Translations under genes and position numbers: made by a program
Shown: one piece after another, positions 504-22,882 of the stretch
Layout of the letters: every line of letters starts with the position of its first letter
How positions within the stretch are numbered: the first letter of the stretch is position 1
The notes under the pieces: generated by a model
Database searches by the model: none
Told to the model about the DNA's origin: nothing
Seen by the model: only the letters and a program-made list of their open reading frames with translations
Assembly: GCA_965215275.1 (NCBI GenBank)
Contig: OZ244044.1
Span: forward strand, 192,001 to 256,000
DNA: 64,000 bases
Direction of reading: 5' to 3'
Origin: Thermodesulfobacteriota bacterium
GTDB lineage: Bacteria > Desulfobacterota_D > UBA1144 > Nemesobacterales > JAJCZQ01

Positions 504-1910
504 CTACTTCATAAAATGTGTACTGTTGCCGTAGAACATTTCGGCAGCTTCCATAAAGGTTTCCGTAAGCGTTGGGTGCGGATGTACGGACAGTGATATA
601 TCGGACGCTAATGTTGCCATCTCTACTCCCAGAACACCTTCAGAGATAAGTTCTCCCGCCCCTGTTCCTGCTATCCCGGCGCCAAGCAGTCGCTCGGTTT
701 TAGCATCGAAGATCATTTTTGTCAGTCCATCTGTTTTATTGAGGGTCATGGCCCTGCCTGAAGCTCCCCATGGGAACCTGGTTATTTTTACATCTATATT
801 ATTCCGTCTGGCTTCTTTCTCCGTTAACCCGCACCATGCGATCTCAGGGTCGGTAAAGACCACTGCGGGTACGGCTGCTACGTCGTATATGACGTTTTGA
901 CCGGCAATGACCTCTGCGGCCACCCTGCCCTCATGAGTGGCCTTATGGGCGAGCATGGGTTCACCTGCCACGTCCCCTACGGCGTAAATGTTCGGTTCAT
1001 ACGTTCTTTTCTGTCTGTCCGTTTCAATAAATCCCATGCTGTTCACCTTTACCTTCGTGTTCTCAAGTCCGATACCTTCGGAGTTAGGTTGCCGTCCGGT
1101 TGATATCAGCACTTTGCTGAACTGACGTTCAAACTTACCGTCATCTTTGTTCTCGAACGTAACCTTTATCCCTTTATTCGTTTTTCTGACCCCGGTCACC
1201 TTTGTACCGAGCAGGATCAAGCTAAACTCCTTTTTCAGTTTTTTATAAAGAACGCTGGACAGGTCATTATCCGCCGCTTCGATTATAGAGTCGAGCATTT
1301 CCACGACCGTTACGTTCGAACCCAGGGACGCATATACCGTACCCATCTCGAGTCCTATGTATCCCCCACCGATAACCAGGAGTTCTTCTGGCACGCTTTC
1401 AAGCGCTAAGGCACCTTCTGAGTTCATTATTTTTTTATTATCCACTTTTATTCCGGGTATGTCTGCCGGTCTGGACCCCGTGGCAATGATACAGTTCTCA
1501 AAACTGACCGTCTCTTCAGAACCGTTCTCTTTCGTAACCTTCATTGTTTTTGAACTTGTAAGGGTCGCGGTTCCACTTATATAATTGATCTTTCTTTTTT
1601 TTACCAGAAAACCGGCCCCGCTCGTCAGCCTGTTTATTATCTGCTCCTTCCACTGCACCATTTTTTTCAGATCTATGCTGGGGTCGTCGTAAGTTATGCC
1701 GATCTTTTCTGCATCTTTTGATCCGCTTAGAACGCTCGCGGCGTGAAGTAACGCCTTTGACGGGATGCATCCACGGTAAAGGCACTCACCACCTGGGTTT
1801 TTTTCACGGTCTATCAGGGTAACCCTGAGTCCCAGGTCCGCGGCCCTGAAAGCTGCTGGATATCCCCCTGGACCGGCACCTATTATGGCTAACTGTGTGT
1901 TTATGCTCAT
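504..1910 (-). CDS. lpdA: Dihydrolipoyl dehydrogenase (E3)
   Basis: GAGPGG FAD motif, redox CLYRGCIPSK, GGGYIG NAD motif, C-terminal HPHPTLTE. Confidence 0.97.
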   Translation of the reverse strand: MSINTQLAIIGAGPGGYPAAFRAADLGLRVTLIDREKNPGGECLYRGCIPSKALLHAASVLSGSKDAEKIGITYDDPSIDLKKMVQWKEQIINRLTSGAGFLVKKRKINYISGTATLTSSKTMKVTKENGSEETVSFENCIIATGSRPADIPGIKVDNKKIMNSEGALALESVPEELLVIGGGYIGLEMGTVYASLGSNVTVVEMLDSIIEAADNDLSSVLYKKLKKEFSLILLGTKVTGVRKTNKGIKVTFENKDDGKFERQFSKVLISTGRQPNSEGIGLENTKVKVNSMGFIETDRQKRTYEPNIYAVGDVAGEPMLAHKATHEGRVAAEVIAGQNVIYDVAAVPAVVFTDPEIAWCGLTEKEARRNNIDVKITRFPWGASGRAMTLNKTDGLTKMIFDAKTERLLGAGIAGTGAGELISEGVLGVEMATLASDISLSVHPHPTLTETFMEAAEMFYGNSTHFMK

Positions 1911-3295
1911 TAATGTCCTTCAAACAGTATCTTGAACGGCTCTTCAAGAGCTCTTACTATCCATCTCAGGAACTCTGCGGCTGCCACCCCATCGATTATC
2001 CTGTGGTCATAAGATAAGGACAGAGGTATCAGGAGCCTCGGTTCGAATTTTCCATCTATATGGACCGGTTCGATCTTTGACTGGGAAACCCCGAGTATCG
2101 CAACGTCCGGATAGTAAATTATCGGTGAAAAGTACGTTCCACCCACGCCTCCAAGGTTACTGACGGTAAAAGTGCTTCCCTTCAGTTCGTCCGGGGTGAT
2201 CTTTTTATTCCTTACCCGGTCCGATATCTCTGACAGTTCTGACGCGATCTCTATGATGTTCTTACGGTTAGCGTTCCTTATGTTCGGAACGAACAGCCCG
2301 CGATCAGTGTCAACGGCAAAGCCTATATTAACGAACTTCTTATAGATTATCTCATTGCGTTCCATATCTATGCTCGCGTTGAAATCCTGAAAGACCATAA
2401 GTGCCGAAGCCACGACCTTTATCAGAATAGGAGTGATGGTCAGGTTCCCACCGGCTTCCTTGGCCTTTTGTTTGTTCTTTTTCCTGAGCGCGTCCAGTTC
2501 CGTAATATCGGCCTTATCATGCTGAGTTACGTGCGGGATGGTCCAGGCCATTGCAAGGTTTTCAGCCGTAAGTCTTCTTACGGTCGTCATCTTGACCTTC
2601 TCTATTTCCCCCCATTTGGTAAAATCGGGAAGTTCTGGAAGTCTGGCCTCGTATTTTCCTCTGTGCGTGGAGGTATGTGCATCATAGGCGATTATTATGC
2701 CTTTGGCGTGGTTTATGACGTCCTCAGCCGAGATCCTGCCACCTGGACCGGTACCAGACACTTTATCTATATCAACTCCAAGCTGCCGGGCCAGCTTTCT
2801 GGTGGAAGGAGCTGCAGGGATATGGACCTTTTTGTCTGCATTGACGATCGAGAGCATATTGTCCGCCTCATTACCCGTCCCGAGGTCCTTGTCCGACTTT
2901 TTATCTGAGGGGTCTGCCTCTGCTTTCTTTGATGAAGGCTGTTTGATCTCATCTGTAATTTTTTTATTTTCTTCATCTGCTCGTTTTACCGTATCTTCCT
3001 TTGGTCTTTCCTTTTTCGTCTTTTTTTCAACAGGTGCTTTTTTACTGACCTCTGCACCTTCTCCTTCTGTGACCTTTGCTATCAGCTGTCCTATATCTAT
3101 GGTGTCCCCTACGTTTACAAGCACTTCCTGGACCGTTCCGTCATAAGGGGATGGAAGCTCAATAGCGGCCTTGTCGGTTTCTATCTCGATGACCGGTTGT
3201 TCTTTCTTTATCGTGTCTCCACGTGACACGAAGACGTTTATGACCAGGGCTTTGTCTATACCTTCACCGATCTCAGGGAGCGATATGCTGTTCAT
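1910..3295 (-). CDS. aceF: Pyruvate dehydrogenase E2, single lipoyl domain
   Basis: Lipoyl ETDKA, E3-binding GTGPGGRI, catalytic DHRIIDG; lies between aceE and lpdA. Confidence 0.95.
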   Translation of the reverse strand: MNSISLPEIGEGIDKALVINVFVSRGDTIKKEQPVIEIETDKAAIELPSPYDGTVQEVLVNVGDTIDIGQLIAKVTEGEGAEVSKKAPVEKKTKKERPKEDTVKRADEENKKITDEIKQPSSKKAEADPSDKKSDKDLGTGNEADNMLSIVNADKKVHIPAAPSTRKLARQLGVDIDKVSGTGPGGRISAEDVINHAKGIIIAYDAHTSTHRGKYEARLPELPDFTKWGEIEKVKMTTVRRLTAENLAMAWTIPHVTQHDKADITELDALRKKNKQKAKEAGGNLTITPILIKVVASALMVFQDFNASIDMERNEIIYKKFVNIGFAVDTDRGLFVPNIRNANRKNIIEIASELSEISDRVRNKKITPDELKGSTFTVSNLGGVGGTYFSPIIYYPDVAILGVSQSKIEPVHIDGKFEPRLLIPLSLSYDHRIIDGVAAAEFLRWIVRALEEPFKILFEGH

Positions 3296-3304
3296 TAAAG
3301 TTCC

Positions 3305-5992
3305 TCATACGAACAATGGATTTGATTTATTAACATCTATTTTAAACTGCTTCTTGGCTTTATTCAGTAATTTCTTATCGATAATTCCCTTTTTATAGAG
3401 CTCTGCCAGGCTCGAGTACGCTATATGTTCCGCATTTACCTCAAAATGGTACCTGAGCATTTCTCTGTTGTCGCTTCTGCCAAAACCGTCCGTGCCAAGC
3501 GTTACGAGCGGCTTGGGAAACCACTTTGAGACGGTATAGGGCACTGCTTTTATATAATCACACACTGCAACGTATATACCGCTGTCGTTATTATCGAAAC
3601 ATCTTTCGATGTAGTTCTTTTTACGCTTTTTCCCCGCGTTCAGGATGTTCCATCTGTCCGTGTCCTGCGCATCTTTATAGAGTTCCTTGTAGCTCGTGAC
3701 GCTCCAGACGTCCGTGGTGATCCCGTATTGCGTCTCCAGTATTTTAGAAGCCCTTATCACTTCATTTAAAACGCCGCCACTTCCCAGAAGGTTTACGTGC
3801 CTTTCAGGGTCTCTTTCCGGACTTTCTTTAAAGCGGTACATACCTTTGATGATCCCTTCCTCTACGCCTTCCGGCATTGCCGGCTGTTCATATATTTCAT
3901 TCAGCAGCGTTACGTAATAGAAAACGTCTTCATACTCCATGTACATACGCCTGATACCGTCCTTGATGATAACCGCAAGTTCGTAAGCGTAAGCAGGATC
4001 ATACGCTATTATCGTAGGATAGGAAAAAGCGTAATGATGGCTGTTGCCATCCTGATGCTGCAGTCCCTCGCCGGCAAACGAACTCCTGCCGGAAGTGCAT
4101 CCGATAAAGAACCCTTTACATTTCATATCCGACCCCGCCCAGATAAGGTCCCCTACCCTCTGAAAGCCGAACATCGAATAGAACGTGAAAAAAGGGATGG
4201 TATTTACACCATGGGTCGCATAGGCGGTGCCGGCAGCTATGAACGATGAGAATGCCCCTGCTTCGGTTATTCCTTCTTCCAGTATCTGTCCATCCGTTGC
4301 TTCTTTGTAATAAAGGAAAGTATCAGAATCCACTGGCTCGTAAACCTGTCCCACATGGGAATATATACCTGCCTGTCTGAAAAGGGATTCCATACCGAAC
4401 GACCTTGCTTCATCAGGGATGATAGGTACTATCAGCTTTCCGATCTCCTTGTCCCTCAGGAGTTTTGAAAGCAGTCTTACATAAGCCATGGTGGTTGCTG
4501 CACCTCTGCCACCGGAACCTTTGTAGAATTCGTCAAATACCGTCTCATCATATCCTTTTATGGGCTGTCCCAGCACTTTTCTTGCAGGCAGATAGCCTCC
4601 GAGTTTTTCCCTTTGCTGTTTTAGATATTCGACTTCAGGACTGTCATCGTCCGGTTTGTAGAACGGTGCTCTGGCAACGTCTTCATCTGATATTGGTATA
4701 CTGAAACGCGTTCTGAACTCCTTAAGTTCCTCTTCGTTCAGTTTTTTCTGATTATGAGTAACGTTCCTGCCTTCTCCAGCCTCTCCCAGTCCATATCCCT
4801 TTATCGTTTTTGCAAGTATGACCGTTGGCTCTCCTTTATGTCCGGTGGCCTCTTTATATGCCGCATACACCTTTTCACTGTCATGTCCGCCTCTTCTCAG
4901 CTTTTCAAGTTCGTAGTCCGAATACGTTCTCACGAGGTCTTTCAGCTTCGGATGGGTCCCGAAAAAATGTTCCCTTATGTATGCACCGTCTTCAACTATG
5001 TACTTCTGATAGTCACCGTCCACGGCACTTTCCATCCTTTGAACGAGCAGTCCATCTTCATCTTTTTCCAAAAGAGGGTCCCAGTCGTCACCCCATATCA
5101 GCTTGATGACGTTCCACCCTGCGCCTCTGAATATCCTTTCGAGCTCCTGTATTATCTTTCCATTTCCTCTGACGGGACCGTCCAGTCTTTGCAGATTGCA
5201 GTTCACTACGAATATCAGATTGTCAAGACTTTCTCTTGACGCAAGGGTTATTGCCCCAAGGGATTCAGGTTCATCGGTCTCACCATCTCCCATGAAAACC
5301 CAGACCTTGCTGTCTATATTCTTTTTTAATCCCCTGTCTTCAAGATATCTGTTGAACCTTGCCTGATAGATCGCCATGATCGGAGAAAGTCCCATGGAGA
5401 CGGTGGGGATCTCCCAGAAATCCGGCATAAGCCATGGATGTGGATATGAGGACAGCCCGGCACCATGGGTCAGTTCTTTTCTGTAGTTCCTGATCTGCTT
5501 GACCGTGATCCTTCCCTCAAGGAAAGCACGGGCGTATATACCCGGAGCGGCATGCCCTTGAAAATAAACTATATCTCCATCCTGATTTTCGTTACTGGCT
5601 TTCAGGAAGTGATGGAACGCCACTTCGAACAAAGTAGCACAGGAAGCGTAAGTGGAGATATGACCTCCTATACCTTCATCGTTCCTGTTGGCCCTCACGA
5701 CCATTGCCATCGCGTTCCACCTTATGATGTTCCTGATCCTTCGCTCTATATCTGTATTCCCTGGATACTTGGGCTGTTTACTGAAGGGAATTGTATTTAT
5801 ATAAGGCGTGTTGGCGGTATAAGGTACTGCTATGCCCGCTTTTTGCGAGTATATCTGAAGATTTCTCAGTAACTTTTGGACCCTGGCGTGTCCAGAGGTC
5901 TTGAGAACGGCCTCCAGGGATTCTATCCACTCCCTGTCTTCTGTTTCTTCTTGATGTTCCACACTTTCGTCTTTTTGGTATGACATGGACAT
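3305..5992 (-). CDS. aceE: Pyruvate dehydrogenase E1, homodimeric type
   Basis: GGHISTYAS, LSSYPHPWLMP, GDGETDEPES TPP motif, GEGLQHQDG. Confidence 0.97.
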   Translation of the reverse strand: MSMSYQKDESVEHQEETEDREWIESLEAVLKTSGHARVQKLLRNLQIYSQKAGIAVPYTANTPYINTIPFSKQPKYPGNTDIERRIRNIIRWNAMAMVVRANRNDEGIGGHISTYASCATLFEVAFHHFLKASNENQDGDIVYFQGHAAPGIYARAFLEGRITVKQIRNYRKELTHGAGLSSYPHPWLMPDFWEIPTVSMGLSPIMAIYQARFNRYLEDRGLKKNIDSKVWVFMGDGETDEPESLGAITLASRESLDNLIFVVNCNLQRLDGPVRGNGKIIQELERIFRGAGWNVIKLIWGDDWDPLLEKDEDGLLVQRMESAVDGDYQKYIVEDGAYIREHFFGTHPKLKDLVRTYSDYELEKLRRGGHDSEKVYAAYKEATGHKGEPTVILAKTIKGYGLGEAGEGRNVTHNQKKLNEEELKEFRTRFSIPISDEDVARAPFYKPDDDSPEVEYLKQQREKLGGYLPARKVLGQPIKGYDETVFDEFYKGSGGRGAATTMAYVRLLSKLLRDKEIGKLIVPIIPDEARSFGMESLFRQAGIYSHVGQVYEPVDSDTFLYYKEATDGQILEEGITEAGAFSSFIAAGTAYATHGVNTIPFFTFYSMFGFQRVGDLIWAGSDMKCKGFFIGCTSGRSSFAGEGLQHQDGNSHHYAFSYPTIIAYDPAYAYELAVIIKDGIRRMYMEYEDVFYYVTLLNEIYEQPAMPEGVEEGIIKGMYRFKESPERDPERHVNLLGSGGVLNEVIRASKILETQYGITTDVWSVTSYKELYKDAQDTDRWNILNAGKKRKKNYIERCFDNNDSGIYVAVCDYIKAVPYTVSKWFPKPLVTLGTDGFGRSDNREMLRYHFEVNAEHIAYSSLAELYKKGIIDKKLLNKAKKQFKIDVNKSNPLFV

Positions 5993-6097
5993 TTCTCTTC
6001 AGCAATTTTAATCAATAGTGAAAAAAGTAAAAGGTTTATAATGAACGTAATATAGTTATATAAGGGAATTATAGTGAATAGTTGACAGGAAGAAAAA

Positions 6098-6126
6098 TTG
6101 AAAACGGGTCAGAAAATGGGTAATAT
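6098..6126 (+). promoter_or_regulatory. Putative sigma70 promoter of tnpB1 (leaderless)
   Basis: TTGAAA-17nt-TAATAT, 6 nt before ATG 6133; no SD. Confidence 0.5.
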
Positions 6127-6132
6127 TATAGC

Positions 6133-7347
6133 ATGGTTAGAACGATCACAAGAACTGTAAAGGCAGATAGTGTTTTTCATAAAAGGCTGGATGAATTCTT
6201 ACAACAGCTTACCGACCTGTATAACGGAGCTTTATATCACAGATTAAGATCTTATGACTGGTATGAAAAAACTATCTCTAAATACGAACAGTTTAACGAA
6301 CTAACTGAGGTCCGAGAGCAAGACAAGGAATTTGAAAAGTTTAATGTTGTAGCTCAAAGAAGCGTTCTGGAAAGACTGGATAATGCATATAGTCCTTATT
6401 TGAACTATTTAAAGAATAAAAAAGCAGGAAAGAAGGTGGGCAGACCAAAATACAAAGGTCCAAACAGACCTGTCAGAAGTTTTGAAACAAACAATTATAA
6501 AAACATTGAAAAGATCGGCAGAAGAACGTATTTAACGATAAAGGGACTTGGCAGATTATCTTTCAAAGGTTCTATGCCTGATGGAGTTGTTTTAAAACAA
6601 CCTAAAACAACAATAAGGATAGTTAAAACTGCTATAAGGATAAAGATCCAGTTTCTATGTGAGTTTACCAGCGAAAAGAAAAGACCTATGGACAGGTCCA
6701 TAGGGATCGATCTTGGAATTATAAACAGAATGGCTTTTTCAGATGGAACTAAAATACCAGGAGTTCGGTTGAACAGAAAGGAACTGAAAAGAAAGCAGAG
6801 AATTGTTTCAAGAGCGGTAAAAGGTTCTGACAGCAGAAAGAAGAAAGTTTTATCGTTAGCAAAGGAATGGGAACGAACTACCGATCGTGAAAATAACGCT
6901 ATACACAGAATGACTACCGAAATAGTAAAAAAGAACAATCATATAAAGTTGGAGGATTTAAAGATCCAAAATATGGTAAAAAATCCTTATTTAGCAAGAA
7001 GTGTAACGGAACAGCAATGGGGGAAGATTAAAACCCAACTTGACTACAAAGCCGAGATAGCTGGAGGCAAGTTAGTTTTAGTTAATTCCCATTATACAAC
7101 AATGACCTGTTCTGAATGCGGAAAGGTAAATCCAAAACTGCCTTTGTCTGAAAGAGTATTTAACTGTATATATTGCGGTTATTCAGAAGACAGGGATATA
7201 AATGCAGGTAAAAATATCAATACTCTTAATGAAGGAGACTTCATATCGGGTGGGAATAAGGTAGAAATACTCCCGATGAGTGCTAAGAGTATCAGATCAA
7301 AAGAGAACAGGGATAGAGGAACTCTGCACTCAGAACAGTACGAGTAG
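6133..7347 (+). CDS. tnpB: RNA-guided endonuclease TnpB
   Basis: GRPKYK, RuvC-I GIDLG, RuvC-II LEDL, zinc finger CSEC...CIYC, RuvC-III DRDINA; D-E-D triad intact. Confidence 0.95.
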   Translation: MVRTITRTVKADSVFHKRLDEFLQQLTDLYNGALYHRLRSYDWYEKTISKYEQFNELTEVREQDKEFEKFNVVAQRSVLERLDNAYSPYLNYLKNKKAGKKVGRPKYKGPNRPVRSFETNNYKNIEKIGRRTYLTIKGLGRLSFKGSMPDGVVLKQPKTTIRIVKTAIRIKIQFLCEFTSEKKRPMDRSIGIDLGIINRMAFSDGTKIPGVRLNRKELKRKQRIVSRAVKGSDSRKKKVLSLAKEWERTTDRENNAIHRMTTEIVKKNNHIKLEDLKIQNMVKNPYLARSVTEQQWGKIKTQLDYKAEIAGGKLVLVNSHYTTMTCSECGKVNPKLPLSERVFNCIYCGYSEDRDINAGKNINTLNEGDFISGGNKVEILPMSAKSIRSKENRDRGTLHSEQYE

Positions 7348-7396
7348 TTGTTTGTCAACTATTCACTATAATTCCCTTACATAAGTAATGCCAATG
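7241..7396 (+). ncRNA. Predicted omega-RNA of tnpB1 (scaffold to 7376, guide about 7377-7396)
   Basis: Stems ATCGGG/CCCGAT, GAGTGC/GCACTC with AGAGT/ACTCT, and GAGTAGTTG/CAACTATTC; loop GGGAAT complementary to terminal ATTCCC; boundaries inferred. Confidence 0.6.
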
Positions 7397-7466
7397 GCAG
7401 AAAAACCATGTAATATATACCTGATTCATTATTGACCAGAATAATGATACATATGATATTAATCCT

Positions 7467-8897
7467 ATGAAAAAATTCGACCTGACTATTATCGGTTCCG
7501 GACCGGGTGGGTATATAGCAGGAATTCGTGCTGCACAGCTTGGTATGAACGTTGCGGTAATTGAACGTGACAAACCTGGTGGGGTCTGTCTGAACTGGGG
7601 CTGTATACCTTCTAAAGCGATACTTAAATGTGCAGAAGTTTACAACTATATTATCAGTTCGGAAAATTACGGTATTAAAGCGGACGGGGTTTCGTACGAC
7701 TACTCAAAAGTAGTAGATAAAAGCCAAAATGCATCATCGACCTTGAACAAAGGTGTTGAGTTCCTGCTTAAAAAGAACAACGTCACCCTGTTCAAAGGGG
7801 TCGGAAAGATCGTAAAGGAAGATCAGATAGCCGTTCTTAACAAGGAAAGCACTGAGATCCATTCGGATAAGGTCCTTATAGCTACCGGCTCGGTACCAAG
7901 AACGATCCCCGGTCTGGAAATAGACGGCAAAATAGTTATGACCAGTGATGAAGCGATCAGACACCGCGAAGTTCCCAGATCCGTTGTAATTATAGGCGGT
8001 GGTTATATAGGAGTGGAATTTGCCTACGTTTATAACTCTTTCGGCAGTAAAGTTACGATCGTTGAAATGGAAAAGAACATTATTCCAGGGGCTGATGAGG
8101 AAGTCGCACAGGAACTGCGGAAGATCTTTAAAAAACAAGGGATAGAGGTACTTACTGAAACTAAATACAGGTCTGTCAAAAAGCAGAAGACATCCGCTAC
8201 CGTAACGGTCGAGAACGTACGCTCAGGTGAGGAAAAAAATATAAAAGCTTCGTTGGTGTTGGTTGCAATTGGGCGGAGAGCAGTTGCAAATGCTTCCCCG
8301 TCTTCTTTCAGTTATTACGGAAAGAAGGAAAGTCTTGGGCTTGAAGAGATCGGCGTTGAGCTCAGTGATGACGGTTTTATCAAGGTCGATAAGGATTATA
8401 TGACGACTAAAAACAATATCTATGCCATTGGCGACGTCATAGGTCCCCCTCTGCTGGCACATAAAGCCTCCGAAGAAGGTGTTGCGGCGGTAGAGATCAT
8501 GAACGGGATCAAAAGCAAGGTTCACTATAACAAGATACCGGGCTGCGTTTATTGTCAGCCCGAAGTAAGTACCCTCGGTCTTACCGAAAAACAGGTAAAG
8601 GAACAGGGTTTTGACTACACGGTCGGGAAATTTCCGTTCAAGGCCGCAGGAAAAGCCGTTGCCGTAGGTGATACAGATGGATTTGTAAAGATCCTGTCTG
8701 ACAAAAGGACCGGCGAGATACTCGGAGCTCATATCATAGGACATGGAGCCACGGAACTGATAGCAGAACTTGGCCTGGCGTCTTCCCTTGAAGCCACGCC
8801 CCTTGAGATCTCATACACCTCTCATGCTCACCCTACTCTTTCTGAAGCGATCATGGAAGCTGCACTGGGAGCGTTAGGAAGAACGCGCAATTTCTGA
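7467..8897 (+). CDS. lpdA: Dihydrolipoyl dehydrogenase (second paralog)
   Basis: GSGPGG, CLNWGCIPSK, HAHPTLSE. Confidence 0.96.
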   Translation: MKKFDLTIIGSGPGGYIAGIRAAQLGMNVAVIERDKPGGVCLNWGCIPSKAILKCAEVYNYIISSENYGIKADGVSYDYSKVVDKSQNASSTLNKGVEFLLKKNNVTLFKGVGKIVKEDQIAVLNKESTEIHSDKVLIATGSVPRTIPGLEIDGKIVMTSDEAIRHREVPRSVVIIGGGYIGVEFAYVYNSFGSKVTIVEMEKNIIPGADEEVAQELRKIFKKQGIEVLTETKYRSVKKQKTSATVTVENVRSGEEKNIKASLVLVAIGRRAVANASPSSFSYYGKKESLGLEEIGVELSDDGFIKVDKDYMTTKNNIYAIGDVIGPPLLAHKASEEGVAAVEIMNGIKSKVHYNKIPGCVYCQPEVSTLGLTEKQVKEQGFDYTVGKFPFKAAGKAVAVGDTDGFVKILSDKRTGEILGAHIIGHGATELIAELGLASSLEATPLEISYTSHAHPTLSEAIMEAALGALGRTRNF

Positions 8898-8926
8898 ACA
8901 TCCTGCCGTTCAAGTCGTTTACTGCC

Positions 8927-9601
8927 ATGAGCACGCTTGATATATACCACCTTGGAACGATCAGTTACAAGGATGCCATGGATATACAGTTCAAGCTGCT
9001 CGAAAAGAGGATCAATAAAGAGATAAACGACTCTCTTTTACTGCTTGAGCATCCATCAACGATCACAATTGGCAGAAGCGGTAAAAGATCCAATCTTCTT
9101 ATTTCCGACAGTTATTTAAAAAGCAGAAATATAGAATTTTTTGAAACGAACAGAGGTGGGGACATAACGTTCCATGGTCCGGGACAGATCGTATGCTACC
9201 CGATCATAGACCTGGATGATCGCACAAAGGACGTTCATAAGTATATAAGGGATTTGGAAGAAATAATTATAGAGACCCTTAAGGAATTTGACGTTGAAGG
9301 GCAGAGGATCGATGGACTGACCGGAGTATGGACGAAGGGGTGCAAGGTCGCGTCTATTGGAGTGGGTATAAGAAGATGGACCACCTATCATGGGTTTGCC
9401 ATTAATGTAAATACTGACCTTGATCTTTTTGATCTTATAATCCCATGTGGAATTGCTGACGTTGAAATGACCTCTATAAAACGCTGTAATGACCTTGAAG
9501 ACAAAATAGAGATGGATTCCGTCTGTAAGATCATTATTGAAAAGTTCATTAACGAGTTTAAGTATCTTGAAACAGAGGAAAAAACGTTAGTTACTGACTG
9601 A
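8927..9601 (+). CDS. lipB: Lipoyl(octanoyl) transferase
   Basis: LEHP, RGGDITFHGPGQ, KVASIG, HGFAIN, IIPCG. Confidence 0.96.
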   Translation: MSTLDIYHLGTISYKDAMDIQFKLLEKRINKEINDSLLLLEHPSTITIGRSGKRSNLLISDSYLKSRNIEFFETNRGGDITFHGPGQIVCYPIIDLDDRTKDVHKYIRDLEEIIIETLKEFDVEGQRIDGLTGVWTKGCKVASIGVGIRRWTTYHGFAINVNTDLDLFDLIIPCGIADVEMTSIKRCNDLEDKIEMDSVCKIIIEKFINEFKYLETEEKTLVTD

Positions 9602-9697
9602 AACGACCCTGTCTAAGGCAAATTTCTCTTCCCTGTGCTCTCTATACTTCCTGCACAAATAATCTAACCTATACATACTAATGAAAGCACATTGTTG

Positions 9698-10360
9698 TCA
9701 CGGTATTTGTGAACCTAACTGTCCTGTGTCAGCGTCGACCGCTATGCAAGGGTTGCTCGTAGGACTGAAGAAGGACCAAACGCCGGTGCAATCAGCCATA
9801 TTCAAAGCATTTAGCTGTGTTCCATCATCATCCAGTACCGGTATAGGAAGGTTTGCAGAGTCAGATGCTTCTTGTACAAGAACATAAGGACACTTAATAA
9901 TGTCCGCCATTTCCGGGGCATTGGGACGACCTGACCAAAAACCACGCCATTCTTTTTCATTCATATTGTTTTGTACAAGGTTGTATATTCCGGGATTGAT
10001 AAATTCACCAGGGCGGGATTCAACGCTGGTCTGGTAAAACAGCACCATGGAATTTCTTCCAGGATTTCCTTTACTATCTTGCTGATTGGAACCGATGTAT
10101 CCTACTTGTCTAAAATGGTGTCGCCTGCCATTATCGTCAATGAATGTGCTTGTAGCCAGTATGTTGTTTTCGTTAAGCGTTACCTCTTCCATAACTTCAA
10201 AAGCACATATTGGCGTATTATTTGCCCCTAATGTTGTATAATATCCAACCCACTCCACTGGGGCTGGAGAACTGTCCTTACTATCACATGCGAATATAGT
10301 TGCTCCAGCAAGTAGAATTCCTGCAAATACTGAACTAATCTTTTTGTAATGTCGTAAAAT
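9698..10360 (-). CDS. Hypothetical lipoprotein, extended upstream of the ORF-track start to an ATT codon
   Basis: In-frame extension ILRHYKKISSVFAGILLAGATIFA-CDSK is a type II signal peptide; AGGAG SD 7 nt before ATT at 10360. Confidence 0.65.
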   Translation of the reverse strand: MLRHYKKISSVFAGILLAGATIFACDSKDSSPAPVEWVGYYTTLGANNTPICAFEVMEEVTLNENNILATSTFIDDNGRRHHFRQVGYIGSNQQDSKGNPGRNSMVLFYQTSVESRPGEFINPGIYNLVQNNMNEKEWRGFWSGRPNAPEMADIIKCPYVLVQEASDSANLPIPVLDDDGTQLNALNMADCTGVWSFFSPTSNPCIAVDADTGQLGSQIP

Positions 10361-10387
10361 AATATTTCTCCTGATAGATTTTCTCCA

Positions 10388-10416
10388 AATTTATTACAGA
10401 GGATCATATTTGTCAA
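10388..10416 (-). promoter_or_regulatory. Putative sigma70 promoter of the lipoprotein gene; -35 box lies in the TSD of element 2
   Basis: TTGACA (10416-10411)-17nt-TAAATT. Confidence 0.5.
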
Positions 10417-10540
10417 TGGGAACTATATACTTAAGTATCCAGTGGATACTAAAAGTTCTCTTTGACGAGTCATAGACCAGTTCCTGTCCCCAACCCCTCT
10501 GCAGTCTCCCCGTCCAATCACCCCTTTCCCTGAGGCTATA
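10398..10540 (-). ncRNA. Predicted omega-RNA of tnpB2 (scaffold to 10418, guide about 10417-10398)
   Basis: Sense-strand stems GCCTC/GGGGT with loop AGGGAAA, GACGGG/CTCGTC with AGACT/GGTCT, and AGTATCC/GGATACT; terminal TTCCC complementary to loop GGGAA. Confidence 0.6.
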
Positions 10541-11640
10541 ATTTGTTTTATTCCAGTTTCCAACTGGTTAAATGCAGCATTTAAGTCAGCATTAACTTCA
10601 TAACCGCAAGATGTACACTTAAATCTGGATTGCGATCTTCTGTTATCAGGAGATCTGTGTCCGCATTCAGAACAGGTTTGACTGGTATATGCAGCTGGAA
10701 CTTCTTCAGTAGCATTACACTTGTAATCCAGCATCCTTTTCATATCAAACCAGCCAGTAGCACGAATGTTCCTGTTCATCTTGCGAAAGTTCTTCCATTT
10801 CTTTCTGGCTGTCATCCCTTGTGTATTAAGTCTCTCAAGTACAGGAACATCATAAAGATCGGAGATCTTTCTTGTAACCTGATGTCTCCAGTCCTTCTGT
10901 CTGTTTGCCAGCTTCCTATGAAGTTTCTGTAACCTTTCCTTAGTAATTCTCCACCTGTTACTTCTCTCTTCCTGACGTGCAAGTTTCTTTTGGTATCTGC
11001 GTATCTTTGCTTCTGTAAGTTCATCATCAGATAACTTAAAAACCTGTCCGTCAGACAGCGTAACCTGTCTTGAATTCCTGTCCATTGCTACAACTCTTAC
11101 TTCTTTCTTTTCCTTTTTAGTTTCATCTATCTCATAGGTAAGGTACGCATACCACTTACCGCATTCCTTCCTTATCCTGCCAGAAAGGAACTTTCCATCA
11201 GGATATGGATTCTTACCTGCCAACCTGAACCATCCAACCTTTAAAATACGGAGCCACTTATTATCTGACAGTTTAGCTGACTGATAATTTACCGGGAATG
11301 AAGGAGTGGTTTTTAATTTACTCTTGAATTTAGGTTGTCCCGATTTTCCATCCCTGTATCTCTTACAGGCATTTGTAAGGTCCAGTAAATAATGCTGAAG
11401 TATGTAAGCAGATGCTTCTTTCAGAAAGTAGTTCTTTTCTTCTTTCTTCAATTCTCTCAAATCGTTACCTAAACTCTCATGACCATAACCATCATTAAAA
11501 TCATTATCCTTTAAATTTCCCACGAATTGATTCCAGATAAACCTGCAACAGCCAGCAGTAGAGGAAAGTTTATGAAACTTCTCCCTGTTGTTTGATCTCA
11601 ACCTCTGCCTTACCGTTCTTATTGTCTTACCTTCTTTCAT
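10423..11640 (-). CDS. tnpB: RNA-guided endonuclease TnpB (divergent from tnpB1)
   Basis: CRFIWN, GQPKFK, RuvC-I AMDRN, RuvC-II LERL, YTSQTCSEC...CTSC, RuvC-III NADLNAA; stop codon lies inside the TIR. Confidence 0.95.
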   Translation of the reverse strand: MKEGKTIRTVRQRLRSNNREKFHKLSSTAGCCRFIWNQFVGNLKDNDFNDGYGHESLGNDLRELKKEEKNYFLKEASAYILQHYLLDLTNACKRYRDGKSGQPKFKSKLKTTPSFPVNYQSAKLSDNKWLRILKVGWFRLAGKNPYPDGKFLSGRIRKECGKWYAYLTYEIDETKKEKKEVRVVAMDRNSRQVTLSDGQVFKLSDDELTEAKIRRYQKKLARQEERSNRWRITKERLQKLHRKLANRQKDWRHQVTRKISDLYDVPVLERLNTQGMTARKKWKNFRKMNRNIRATGWFDMKRMLDYKCNATEEVPAAYTSQTCSECGHRSPDNRRSQSRFKCTSCGYEVNADLNAAFNQLETGIKQIIASGKGVIGRGDCRGVGDRNWSMTRQRELLVSTGYLSI

Positions 11641-11647
11641 ATTTGTA

Positions 11648-11676
11648 ATTTTACCTTATTCCCTTGCTTTTTTTAA
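11648..11676 (-). promoter_or_regulatory. Putative promoter of tnpB2 (leaderless)
   Basis: TTAAAA-17nt-TAAAAT, 7 nt before ATG 11640. Confidence 0.45.
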
Positions 11677-11918
11677 GTAGTTTGGATAGTTAAGTATATA
11701 GTCCCCTTGTCAATTAAGGGATCTGCCGTATGTTCAATATTCAATCGCAGATGTTTTAATATGAATAACTTGATAAGTTAAGTAATTGTTTTCAGGAGAA
11801 AGAGTTTTTCCGAACACGAGCCTCAAGGACATTACACGGTAACGCACCCGTTCTCCTCAACGAACTTATAAAAGAAAACCAGGTTGTAATTCTATCTTGT
11901 GTTTTGCTGTCAATATTA

Positions 11919-14436
11919 TCAGGTCTTTATCCGAGACCTAATCTTCCTTCTTATCACAACAGATACAGGTATAAGCATCAGCGATGCCACTGCTGTGAGC
12001 ATATCAGGAACGGCTTCGCTCTGACCGGAGACCGCACATCCTCCTCCGCCTGTATCACTACCTGATGACGTTGGTCTTTGTGTCGGTGGTCTTGTTGTTG
12101 GTGGGTCTGTCGGTCCTGGCGGCGTAGTTGTTACCCTGATCGTAAATCTCAGCTCATCCGTATCTCCATCTTCGTCCGTTACCTTATATGTATAACTGCC
12201 AGAAGATACAGCAGTCGGTGTTCCGCTGATAACTCTGTCAGTTTCACTGAAAGCAAGTCCAGCAGGTAAACCAGTAGCAGGTAAAAGAGGGGACAGGCTG
12301 TAGGTCAGTTCTCCATTCCCTGCTGTTGCCTCAGGCAGTGTTTCTTTTATTGCAGTTCCCGGCACGTAATTCTTATCTGGTATGGTCCAGTTGTTAAACG
12401 TCGGCGTGTCCCCAGACATATGACCATAGACCTTTATGTTCCATGAGTGTAAGGTCCCCGTACCTGCAATTGAATTGTTAGTTATCTTCAAGGTCCACTC
12501 TCCAGCAGGGTCCGTTCCTAAGTGATTGGCTAAACCAAAACGATGTTCCCTGCCTGTGTACTTAAAGTCGTCTACAGTAAGAGATCCGTCAGATAAATGT
12601 GATAACGCTTCTGATGCATATTCCTCAGTGAGTTTTGACACGGTAGTATCGTCAGGAGAAGTTATTTCTATATCTAAAAAAGGAAAGAAAGGATGGGTAA
12701 AATTGATACCTATCTCTATAAATTCCGTAAATACCTCAGTGTCTGGTATATCTATATCAGGTACTGTCAGTGTGAAAACAACTGAAACGTCTTCTGCGTT
12801 TTCCCCCGTTGTGAAGTCTGGTATAACCGTATTGATATTACCCGAGGAAACCGTCACGGGTTTCATTTGCGGTGGAACGTTGGTCCAGCTTTCTGCAAGT
12901 TCCACTGCAGCTGCAGCGTCTACTGTGCCAAAAGTATCTACTGTGCCAAAACCGAACTTTGGATTGTAAAAATAATACTCTGAATCAGAACCGTATTGAA
13001 GTGCTACTCTCTTCCATTCTTGGGTATCACCGGAACGGGAGCCCTGGCTGGCTGAACCTGCCAAGATCAGTTTCAGGTCTCGCCAGCTAAGATCACTGTT
13101 TACCTCTCTCATCAGTGCTGCAATTCCTGAAACGACCGCTGCTGAATTTGACGTTCCAGGGAACTCAAAAGTATAACCGTCGTTATTGTCGGTAGTTACA
13201 ATACCGGAACCCGGTGCACATACCCATAGATTGTATCCCTCTTCTGAAAAGGAACTCTTAGTAACAGCGAGCGCATCCCTATCGATCTCTGATGAACATA
13301 CGGTAGTTACTGCGTAGTAGTTGGAATACTCATCAAAATTAGCCTGGTCTGATCCTTCATGTCCGTCCCCTGCCGCCCATACGTAAAACACCCCTTTACC
13401 ACCAAATCCTTCTCTTATACCCGTTCTCACCCCTTCTTCCCACTCTGATGAAGCCTCTGTAAGAACGGGAAGGTCCTTCGGTCCCCAGTTGTTGACCGAT
13501 ACAGCAGTTATATCCTTATTACGGACCATGGCGTCCTTTGCATTAGCATCACTGAAGTTACCAGCTAAATTATAACTGTAGATGTTTGCCTCAGGTGCTA
13601 CACCTCTTACTCCAAGGCTGTTATCACCCACTGCTGCTATAATGCCAGCTACACGTGTTCCACGACCACTGAAAGGACTGTACAGATCACCATTCCCAGA
13701 GTAATCATGAGAAAGTGTGGTATCTACATTGTCAGCAAGGTCCTCATGGTCTGTGTCCATACCATGATCTACCACCGCTACGTTAATCCCAGCACCAAAT
13801 ACGGCATCATCCCAGACATCTTCTATGTTTATGTCTATATCTTGTCTGGCGGAGGTTTGGAATACCTTATCGCCACCTAATATTACATCAACCGCTGGAG
13901 ATTCCAGATACCACTGACAGCCGTATAAGGGATCATTTGGAAAATTGGTAGTAATAATTGAACAGGTTTCAAAGAGTTGATTAGAATCAGCTAATTGAAC
14001 TTGAACTCGATAGGATGTAGCACCACTGCTTCCTACAACGATATAGTACGTTCCCCGTCTGAGGTGAGTTTGTATAGATATATTTCCTAGTAGCCTTTCA
14101 TCACTTGGGTCCACTACTTCAGTAGTACTTGCTATCAGATCATCATTACTGTCACATACCTGTAGGCTGTATTCCTGATCATTGGAGAAGGGGAAGGTTA
14201 CCAATATATCTGCAATAAAATCTCCATTTATGTTTATCTGAAAGTAATGCGGATCAGCACCGGCAGCTAAACTTCCATTGTGTGTTGGTCCTTGCACTCT
14301 CAACGTAGCTTCGGTCGTTGCACTGGAGTCACAGTTGTTAATGCTGGTCTTACCATATGCACTAATGGACACAAAGCACAGAAGAAAGAAAAAAGGAATT
14401 AATAACTTATGGGGGGGGGGGGAGAAACTTCAACAT
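11919..14436 (-). CDS. Surface-anchored S8 (kexin-like) subtilase homolog with P-domain, Ig-like domain and GGGGC-TM-basic tail; frameshifted in a C12 tract
   Basis: VAVVDHG, xGTRVAGIIAA, GTSNSA, GEWTLKI P-domain, ISGTPT Ig-like repeat, PT linker; ATG 14436 joins the 817-aa ORF if the C12 run loses one base. Confidence 0.85.
12919..12951. repeat. 18-bp-period in-frame tandem duplication (FGTVDT/FGTVDA)
   Basis: tctactgtgccaaaa at 12919-12933 and 12937-12951. Confidence 0.85.
14411..14422. repeat. G12 homopolymer in the signal-peptide coding region
   Basis: 12 consecutive G. Confidence 0.95.
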
Positions 14437-20791: not shown

Positions 20792-22882
20792 ATGTCGTTG
20801 GAAATAGACTCGGAGAGAGTACGCAACATAGCTGTAATAGGTTCCCATGGAGTTGGAAAGACCAGTTTGTCAGAAGGATTACTTTTCATTAGCGGTGCCA
20901 CAAGTACGCTGGGAAAAGTGGATGATAACAGTTCGGTCCTTGATCACACAAAAGAAGAAAAGCAGAGAAAAATGTCCTTGACTTCTCACGTTGCCTATTT
21001 TGAGCATGAAGGACATCTTATAAACATTATCGACACCCCTGGGTTCTCGAATTTCCTGTTCGATGCAGATAGTGCGATCAAAGTAGCCGATGCGGTTATC
21101 TTTGTGGTAAATGGAGTTGAAAATTCAGGAGAACAGCTTGACAGATACTGGAGCATGGCGGCTGAAAACGACGTTCCGAGGATCTTGTTTATGAACAATA
21201 TGGACAAAGAACATGCTAATTTCGAGAAATCCTTGGAATATGTAGAGAAGAGCCTCAATATCAAAACAGTTCCGATCACAATACCTATGGGACAGGGAAA
21301 TGACTTTGGAGGAGTGATAAACCTTTTTGAGATGAAAGCCTTTGTATATAAAGGTGAGAACAAGTTCGACGTTCTTGAAATCCCGGAAAATATGGTTCAG
21401 ATGGCAAACGACTGCTATGATAAGGTCCTTGAGACCATAGCCGAACAGGATGACGAGACCCTGGTCAAATATCTTGAAGGTGAGGAGATCGGCCACGATA
21501 CCGTTATCGATATGTACAAGAAAGGCGTAAAGGAATCAACGATCTATCCTATGCTGATAGGCTCTTCAAAAAAGCTTCTGGGCCTATACTCTCTTTTGCA
21601 GGATATCAAGAGCCTGCTGCCGTCCCCGACCGAGGGAGAAGATATGGTCTGCAAAAATCCCGATGGGGATGACGTTACAAGGTCACCAGACAGTACAGGT
21701 CCTTCCTCTTTATATATATTTAAAACGGTATCTGACCCTTTTGCAGGCAAAATAAGTATCGGAAAGGTCCTGTCAGGTACTGTCAAAGCTGACTCAACGC
21801 TCTACAATTCCCACACCAGTTCTAAGATAAAGATCTCTAATCTGTCTCGATTGATCGGAAAGAACGAACATAAGATAAACGAGGCAAAAGCAGGGGATAT
21901 AGTCGGATTGAGCAAGCTCAAGGACGTGAATACGGGTACGACCTTGAGCGACGTTGACCATCCGTGCGTGATCGCTCCAGTGGAATTACCGCAGGCCGTC
22001 CTTTCTTTTGCCATAGAACCTAAAACAAGGGCCGATGAGGATAAACTTACGGTTTCTCTCTCAAGGATAATGGAGGAGGACCCCACGATAAAATTTCATA
22101 AGGAACCGGAAACGAACGAATTCCTTATTTCAGGTACAGGGCAGACACACGTTGAAGTAACGGTTGAAAAACTGCGGAACTCTTATGGAGTGAACGTTAA
22201 TCTGAAAACCCCCAAGGTACCGTACAGAGAGACCATTAAGGGCAGATCTGAAGCAGAAGGTAAGTACGTCAAGCAGACCGGGGGCAGAGGCCAGTACGGT
22301 GTTGCCAGACTGCGTATAGAACCTCTTCAGAACGGAGAAAGTTACGAATTTGTAAATGAAATAGTTGGCGGGGTTATACCGAAAAATTTTATTCCCTCAG
22401 TTGAAAAAGGGGTACAGGACGCAATGAAGAAAGGTGTTCTTGCAGGATTTCCGGTGACGGACGTTAAAATTTCCCTGTTCGATGGTAAATATCATCCCGT
22501 GGACTCTTCCGACGTTGCTTTCCAGATAGCGGGTTCAATGGGATTTAAAAAGGCAATGGAGAACGCCAGCCCGGTACTCCTGGAACCGATCATGAAAATG
22601 AACATACACGTCCCGGAGGACAATATGGGGGATGTGATCGGCGATATAAACGCCAGAAGGGGCAAGGTGGCAGGGGTGGACTCTTCTGTGACCGGTCATC
22701 ACCTTATCGACGCTCTGGTGCCAATGTCGGAAGTTATGACCTACGCACCTGAACTGAGGTCCATTACGAGCGGCAGAGGAAGTTTTACAATGGAATTTTC
22801 CCGCTATGAAGAAGTGCCGTCACAGGTATCCGCCGAAATAGTGGAACAGTTCAGGACCGCACAGGAACAAACTGATACCTGA
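20792..22882 (+). CDS. Elongation factor G-like protein (EF-G2)
   Basis: Full EF-G domain order with KQTGGRGQYG and YHPVDSS, but G-motifs GSHGVGKT, RKMSL, DTPGF, NNMD are divergent as in EF-G II. Confidence 0.92.
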   Translation: MSLEIDSERVRNIAVIGSHGVGKTSLSEGLLFISGATSTLGKVDDNSSVLDHTKEEKQRKMSLTSHVAYFEHEGHLINIIDTPGFSNFLFDADSAIKVADAVIFVVNGVENSGEQLDRYWSMAAENDVPRILFMNNMDKEHANFEKSLEYVEKSLNIKTVPITIPMGQGNDFGGVINLFEMKAFVYKGENKFDVLEIPENMVQMANDCYDKVLETIAEQDDETLVKYLEGEEIGHDTVIDMYKKGVKESTIYPMLIGSSKKLLGLYSLLQDIKSLLPSPTEGEDMVCKNPDGDDVTRSPDSTGPSSLYIFKTVSDPFAGKISIGKVLSGTVKADSTLYNSHTSSKIKISNLSRLIGKNEHKINEAKAGDIVGLSKLKDVNTGTTLSDVDHPCVIAPVELPQAVLSFAIEPKTRADEDKLTVSLSRIMEEDPTIKFHKEPETNEFLISGTGQTHVEVTVEKLRNSYGVNVNLKTPKVPYRETIKGRSEAEGKYVKQTGGRGQYGVARLRIEPLQNGESYEFVNEIVGGVIPKNFIPSVEKGVQDAMKKGVLAGFPVTDVKISLFDGKYHPVDSSDVAFQIAGSMGFKKAMENASPVLLEPIMKMNIHVPEDNMGDVIGDINARRGKVAGVDSSVTGHHLIDALVPMSEVMTYAPELRSITSGRGSFTMEFSRYEEVPSQVSAEIVEQFRTAQEQTDT

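Follow-up and report, generated by a model that had tools for sequence, protein, structure and literature searches.

TnpB-only cassettes with IS1595-type ends in a Thermodesulfobacteriota genome, and their probable mobilization in trans

TnpB proteins inside DDE-type transposon ends have been described previously. Altae-Tran et al. (2023, PMC10691335) defined six DDE-associated branches, DDE-1 to DDE-6, with inverted ends and the tnpB 3′ end within 250 bp of the element end. They also described solo TnpBs that share the ends of these branches and were proposed to move in trans. We found two elements of this general kind in a 64,000-nucleotide stretch of the genome of a Thermodesulfobacteriota bacterium (GCA_965215275.1, contig OZ244044.1, positions 192,001 to 256,000), which we call the window. 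Each consists of a single tnpB gene between IS1595-type terminal inverted repeats (TIRs) and 8-bp target-site duplications (TSDs). Judging from sequence comparisons, the reading that these cassettes are moved in trans by IS1595, and retained by a TnpB that cuts empty alleles, is probable as a whole.

The partner transposon families named so far are few. In the available portions of Altae-Tran et al., IS630 is the DDE family that is named, for DDE-6, whereas IS1595 occurs only in the supplement's list of hidden Markov models (PMC10691335). For DDE-5 systems, the supplement also mentions the motif TA, at 8 bp upstream of where the end is predicted. The part of a 2026 review that we consulted lists ISL2, IS630 and IS1031 as partners (PMC13565253). 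Our literature searches, which covered few subscription papers, found no paper that names a TnpB-IS1595 pairing.

The better-studied IS200/IS605 and IS607 elements are described as having neither TIRs nor TSDs (PMC13565253). Their TnpBs have a motif at the left junction, take their guide from the right flank and retain the element by cutting empty alleles (PMC13565253, PMC10691335). In Fanzors, the 5′ TSD is reported to lie within the target-adjacent motif (TAM) and the 3′ TSD within the scaffold (PMC13565253). For the IS1595 family, an 8-bp TSD is given, and a GG terminus is stated for Merlin in the same text (PMC8101967).

Element 1 spans positions 6064-7376 of the window on the plus strand (1313 bp). 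Its left TIR (6064..6087) and right TIR (7353..7376) match at 24/24 positions and diverge at position 25, and the flanking TSD copies, TTATATAA (6056..6063) and TTACATAA (7377..7384), differ by one change. Element 2 spans 10418-11706 on the minus strand (1289 bp). It has TTGTCAAT on both sides. In the orientation of its tnpB gene, the left TSD is at 11707..11714 and the right TSD at 10410..10417, and the left TIR (11683..11706) matches the right TIR (10418..10441) at 22/24 positions. The single open reading frame (ORF) of each element is an intact tnpB gene, which belongs to lineage T1 in element 1 (6133..7347, plus strand, 404 amino acids) and to lineage T2 in element 2 (10423..11640, minus strand, 405 amino acids). 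The genes fill their elements: 45 and 42 bases, respectively, separate the left TIR from the start codon, and the distance from the stop codon to the right TIR is 5 bases in element 1 and none in element 2, whose right TIR contains the stop codon and one hairpin arm. These coordinates and alignments agree with an earlier note on this DNA, which had reported two tnpB-filled elements of these lengths with 24-bp TIRs and 8-bp TSDs, agreement between the two TIR types at 14/24 positions and clearly different proteins. We find the two proteins to be 27% identical.

The genome that holds the two elements, labeled G000 (with C1 as its contig label), has many more ends of this type. A scan for TIR pairs gave 52 pairings, some nested or overlapping, versus none in each of three locally shuffled genomes. 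A tblastn search revealed 28 tnpB regions, of which 19 are near full length and fall into three families: T1 (eight copies, including element 1), T2 (three copies, including element 2) and T3 (eight copies). GGG..TATA ends occur at all 19 near-full copies (17 clear, two with a weak left end), and 12 of the 19 have TSDs with at most one mismatch. The cassettes have inserted at numerous sites that show no relation to one another. TIRs that begin with GG are characteristic of the IS1595 family.

As the earlier note had suggested, IS1595 transposases with the matching class of ends are present in the genome. There are 28 matches to PF12762, and all six that were tested pass NF033547. Several of these transposase genes sit within the same class of 24-bp ends and 8-bp TSDs. 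The left TIR of element 2 is identical at 23/24 positions to the left end of the IS1595 element G000:C1:1516018-1519071, which encodes a full-length 326-amino-acid transposase. None of the 28 matches lies in the window, so that the earlier statement that the window has no transposase stands for this family, the only one scanned there. The DDE_Tnp_IS1595 transposase encoded by members of the IS1595 family is absent from the cassettes themselves, which appear by their ends to be non-autonomous IS1595 derivatives rather than family members. It is very likely that an IS1595 transposase moves them in trans, because of the ends, the TSDs and the co-occurrence with IS1595 in G000, in all five searched genomes of genus g10 (which have PF12762 matches) and in G120, a Candidatus Oxydemutator sp. 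genome. The earlier proposal of mobilization in trans is thus supported, although the movement itself is inferred.

Both TnpBs are likely RNA-guided nucleases, with cleavage being predicted. They pass the NCBIfam guided_TnpB cut-off and fall below the cut-offs for IS200/IS605 and IS607 TnpBs. The RuvC residues (D193/E274/D355 in element 1 and D187/E269/D352 in element 2) and the C4 zinc finger are intact in both. The RuvC D/E/D residues are invariant among ORFs of at least 375 amino acids (66/66 in T1/T3 and 69/69 in T2) drawn from 72 T1/T3 and 74 T2 loci with a right end, and the ratio of nonsynonymous to synonymous substitution rates is 0.10-0.31 in 12/12 chosen tnpB pairs. The nuclease gene appears to be maintained, with its catalytic residues under purifying selection.

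A natural empty allele exists for element 1, and this element is polymorphic. A 5775-base contig from sequencing run X6 lacks exactly positions 6056-7376, i.e., 1321 bases that correspond to element 1 and one 8-mer; the copy that is retained is the right TSD. Because the contig skips the element plus one 8-mer, the TSD of element 1 is real. The neighbors of element 1 are two divergently oriented genes, one encoding pyruvate dehydrogenase E1 and the other a pyridine nucleotide-disulphide oxidoreductase; we take them to be aceE and lpdA, respectively. The interval between these genes is without tnpB in all three relatives that matched among four related genomes searched. The earlier note had proposed looking for single-8-mer alleles of both elements, and none was seen for element 2 among eight sequencing runs. 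Synteny with G001, a genome of the same genus, ends at about position 10352, near element 2.

Matches to T2 at E <= 1e-40 were found in 25 of the 120 genomes of a phylum search, 23 of which belong to g10, and T1 matches at this threshold occur in 22/36 g10 genomes. We examined 142 tnpB loci, 19 from G000 and 123 from relatives, with a few fetched twice. Both ends were found at 96 loci, a weak left end at 21, no left end at 15 and no right end at 10. Older tnpB copies have lost the left end and kept the right end. Relatives at 35-42% identity retain the cassette layout, and close homologs, which the earlier note had proposed checking, retain the TIRs and TSDs. G120 (locus L248), which is outside the 120 genomes, carries 14 T2-like copies; such ends occur at every one, with five mismatches or fewer at 13. 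Its single IS1595 element has an end that differs at 1/24 positions from the right end in three of these cassettes. Searches with IS1595 queries found no transposase in cis with tnpB in 104 loci, and no tnpB match was found at 17 transposase loci.

Other collections yielded little. IS1595-type ends were absent from 50 metagenome loci, whose best segments are 27-59% identical and in many cases truncated. In a GTDB scan, 1/80 loci was close (L248), and the others were distant and mostly haloarchaeal, with ends inspected at L248 and L249 only. The best matches in a plasmid search for TnpB were about 32% identical.

Four old cassettes of g10 (L096, L098, L103 and L108) lie in the first codons of seeming housekeeping genes, which by eye are presumably leuS, mtnA, smpB and gloA. 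At each locus, the right end contains an ATG that shares the reading frame of the gene downstream, to which the cassette may thus supply a new start.

In trees (built with FastTree from 102 rows and with IQ-TREE from 35 of these), T1/T3 and T2 are separated, and lie among TnpBs that lack TIRs or are of unknown context. An approximately unbiased (AU) test on the 35 rows rejected a single clade of T1/T3 and T2 (p-AU 0.0025), with long branches present. Because one clade is rejected, the phylogeny implies that IS1595 ends were captured at least twice, once by T1/T3 and once by T2. At L118:369-539 (G019:C4), a T2-lineage tnpB that lacks TIR ends precedes an array of three 39-nt repeats and 27-nt spacers. 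The repeat contains a hairpin and terminates in TATTCCCAAG, resembling a TIR end. This array is possibly a nascent CRISPR-TnpB system.

The cassettes have a short motif directly 5′ of the left TSD that is mostly missing on the mirror side. We first spotted it in G000; g10 and G120 then served as the test. The loci used had a TSD with at most one mismatch (73 of the 142 loci, 65 once orthologous sites were removed). In T1, position -1 of the left TSD is G at 27/28 g10 insertions versus 7/28 on the mirror side (p 3e-8) and at 6/6 insertions in G000, for a pooled count of 33/34. This preference holds over 7/8 TIR types of T1. In T2, position -1 is a purine at 25/25 g10 sites and at 10/10 G120 sites (14/14 counting all copies). 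Over all lineages, the pooled count of purines is 74/75, versus 31/75 on the mirror side.

Other IS1595-type ends in G000 differ from the cassettes in this respect. When all copies are counted, G is present at 7/8 T1 left ends versus 19/148 other ends (p 1e-5), and A is present at 11/11 T2/T3 left ends versus 65/148 other ends (p 2e-4). A first control set of 12 elements (ten with a transposase and two other TIR-bounded elements, with one atypical end) has G at 0/24 ends. Bounds could not be set for 23/25 transposase loci of g10, and wider flanks gave GG ends with a TSD in 6/19 transposase regions. For the window, the candidate TAM of element 1 is at 6054..6055 (plus strand; the G that immediately precedes the left TSD on its 5′ side, in T1 mostly as TG) and that of element 2 is at 11715..11716 (minus strand; TA directly 5′ of the left TSD, as in 3/3 T2 copies of G000), with the function of both being inferred. 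This one-sided, lineage-specific motif fits the location of a TAM if the guide starts past the right TIR.

The right end has a second property that could relate to TnpB function. We predict an omegaRNA scaffold at 7245..7376 (plus strand) in element 1 and at 10418..10540 (minus strand, with an approximate 5′ limit) in element 2. In element 1, the predicted structure comprises stem P1 (7245-7250/7272-7277), stem P2 (7277-7283/7326-7332), a hairpin that extends into the right TIR (7342-7350/7356-7364) and possibly a pseudoknot between GGGA at 7252-7255 and the terminal TCCC. We aligned 54 T1/T3 3′ ends. P1 and P2 are paired in nearly all of the rows, with P2 paired in 52-54 rows at all seven positions and showing two-sided changes at positions 3-5 between clades. 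Between the GGGA loop and the terminal TCCC, each pair is complementary in 52-54 rows. We rejected an extension of the pseudoknot into the TSD, which is paired in only 20/54 rows. An Rfam search of the elements gave no match.

We also swapped TIRs between cassettes in silico. In T1/T3, the sequence inside the right TIR pairs better with its own TIR than with foreign ones in 42/44 cases, a count that, like the others of this test, is not corrected for relatedness. Left ends show no such effect, either in T1/T3 (22/45 and 17/45) or in T2 (18/33 and 19/33). Because the TIR co-varies with its upstream hairpin partner, the right TIR is likely part of the predicted omegaRNA scaffold as well as a transposase site. 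Neither this pairing nor the one-sided motif was among the observations of the earlier note.

These features suggest a mechanism in four steps. The IS1595 transposase would bind the TIRs and cut the target with an 8-bp stagger. The 3′ end of the tnpB transcript would then fold into an omegaRNA whose scaffold reaches the CCC at the end of the right TIR; the right TSD (predicted guide nucleotides 1-8 in both elements) and the adjacent flank would make up the guide. An empty allele, in which TAM, TSD and flank are contiguous, would be cut, whereas the left junction of a filled allele would give only an 8-nt match after the TAM. Finally, TAM-adjacent copies would be retained, either because a filled copy serves as the repair template or because cells that carry the empty allele die; the flank bias would follow from this retention.

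Several points weigh against this reading. As to mobilization, we found no intact transposase with ends that match element 1 in the genome; the nearest transposase-bearing end agrees at only 19/24 positions, and its gene is split by a frameshift. The bounded IS1595 ends in g10 differ at 3-7 of 24 positions from 79 cassette ends. As to the scaffold, single-sequence folds are not significant (z -1.47 for element 1 and -0.46 for element 2), and the swap test is weaker in T2 (22/33 right ends). The pseudoknot columns say little because they are nearly invariant, with one two-sided change in 54 rows (in three related rows, at the fifth pair), and the fifth pair is unpaired in 13/54 rows. As to the motif, a second control set of six transposase elements has G at 4/12 ends and a purine at 7/12, and G is therefore not excluded by every helper transposase. 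Bias extends to the first base of the TSD (A at 25/25 T2 sites of g10, T at 6/6 T1 sites of G000), which makes the boundary between TAM and guide unsure. Moreover, the motif has one or two bases, fewer than the 4-5 bases of TAMs of IS605 TnpBs. Matches to self-junctions are not depleted (1.45 vs 0.88 of 6). Lastly, excision by cut-and-paste does not necessarily leave a clean empty site behind, as the 2026 review argues (PMC13565253).

The alternative that survives best is that the motif reflects target choice. A TnpB ribonucleoprotein would mark TAM sites, and the IS1595 transposase, acting in trans, would insert directly beside them. Nuclease and transposase would then be coupled in a minimal way, and this coupling would have arisen at least twice. 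We think it unlikely, although it would explain why motif-less insertions are almost absent (1/34 in T1 and 1/75 for the purine). In its favor, the motif is also found at copies with perfect TSDs and at the polymorphic element 1, and these genomes still hold TnpB-free IS1595 elements that show no such motif. However, RNA-guided site choice is not supported, in that sites of one lineage are unlike beyond the TSD: identity at guide positions 9-20 is no higher than on the mirror side in 4/5 groups, and is 0.267 versus 0.250 in the fifth. The intact nuclease and the lack of an adaptor gene in the cassettes also speak against it.

A somewhat less likely explanation is that TnpB is a selected cargo with no role at the flank, and that the motif arises from orientation-dependent preferences of particular helper transposases. 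The control sets are indeed small (12 and six elements, with one in common) and mix several transposases, a helper is identified for a minority of the cassettes, and IS1595 elements in this genome have cargo of other kinds, methylases and HNH nucleases among them. Yet the motif tracks the TnpB lineage over seven TIR types and two host families, it differs between lineages within one genome, and the hairpin co-variation is confined to the right end.

It is very improbable, and largely refuted, that these are ordinary IS1341/IS605-type tnpB elements inside an IS1595 miniature inverted-repeat transposable element (MITE) and moved by a Y1 or serine transposase: both TnpBs descend from IS605-type TnpBs and the Y1-associated TnpB L046 is among the tree outgroups, but the short distances between gene and TIRs, the layout common to 19/19 copies and an empty allele that lacks the whole TIR-bounded unit plus one 8-mer all contradict this idea, as does the genome, in which we found a single weak match to Y1, some 48 kb away from the closest tnpB, and none to a resolvase.

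We now note further properties of the cassettes and their surroundings. A sigma-70-like promoter match (TTGAAA-17-TAATAT) occurs 5′ of tnpB in element 1 at 6098..6126 (plus strand); it is a consensus match only, in a search that found 9 such sites versus 5.3 expected in shuffles. Element 1 lies in the divergent promoter region of a pyruvate dehydrogenase cluster (504-9601), and both of its TIRs contain an outward TATAAT. Among the genes of the cluster are one that resembles a lipoyl transferase gene and two, on opposite strands, that resemble dihydrolipoamide dehydrogenase genes. A deletion derivative of about 345 bp (G000:C1:1742862-1743207) consists of a left end, the last 84 codons, the predicted omegaRNA and a right end. 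It has the TSD TTACATTA twice, with TG 5′ of the left TSD, and could be an element that provides only a guide. At G000:C1:1616480-1619605, a pair of T3 cassettes is arranged back to back with 16 bases between them.

IS1595-type ends in this genome also enclose other sequences. Four IS1595-type MITEs of 415-446 bp are present (G000:C1:17470-17889, 21513-21955, 1898058-1898472 and 1900512-1900957), and the first two enclose genes for TPR proteins, with an outer 8-bp TSD, and so form a composite unit. IS1595-type ends and a TSD surround a gene for a 1183-amino-acid subtilase/Ig-repeat protein, without a transposase (G000:C1:1028600-1033127); a gene of the window (11919-14372) has similar domains. 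DNA methylase, methylase-HNH and HicA-like passengers occur in the IS1595 elements G000:C1:675417-678070, 1002026-1005187, 1304051-1307389 and 1812584-1815955.

The cassettes bear on the puzzle of why an RNA-guided nuclease pays in DDE transposons, whose insertion leaves TSDs and whose excision is not scarless. As a test system they are compact: about 1.3 kb long, with a named candidate helper in the same genome and a natural empty allele, and with predictions for both the TAMs and the guide boundary. Should the motifs be TAMs, they would be one or two bases long, which would make these TnpBs useful for editing. The repeated re-fitting of the scaffold to new TIRs would show how TnpB passes from one transposon family to another, as Fanzors did in eukaryotes.

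The novelty implied by the earlier note was too high, in that DDE-linked and solo TnpBs with inverted ends are already in the part of Altae-Tran et al. (2023, PMC10691335) that we consulted. The arrangement is not categorically new and has been known in outline since 2023. The window locus adds a named partner family, a natural empty allele and two independent captures side by side. It also adds controlled evidence for a lineage-specific TAM-like motif and the co-variation between TIR and predicted scaffold.

Among described systems, the DDE-associated and solo TnpBs of that study, above all DDE-5, come nearest to the cassettes. Like them, the cassettes have inverted TIRs and a tnpB 3′ end within 250 bp of the element end. 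However, those branches were defined, as far as the available text describes, by a DDE transposase at most 1 kb from tnpB, and none of the cassettes that we examined carries a transposase in cis. The TA motif of DDE-5 is also that of 3/3 T2 copies in G000, whereas T1 has G or TG and T2 in g10 and G120 has a purine. With the IS1595 family, the cassettes share the 8-bp TSD, GG TIRs and ends common to NF033547/PF12762 elements. They differ in having tnpB as sole cargo and no transposase gene, and in the TIR-partner co-variation and the one-sided motif. IS200/IS605 (IS1341) and IS607 elements likewise have a TnpB with intact RuvC and a predicted omegaRNA that overlaps the 3′ end of the gene and the right end, but the cassettes here have TIRs, an 8-bp duplication between motif and element, and a motif of one or two bases. 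Fanzors resemble the cassettes in that a TnpB-family nuclease occurs inside DDE transposon ends with TSDs. By contrast, the cassettes are prokaryotic, have the canonical RuvC-II position and would use most of the 8-bp TSD as guide.

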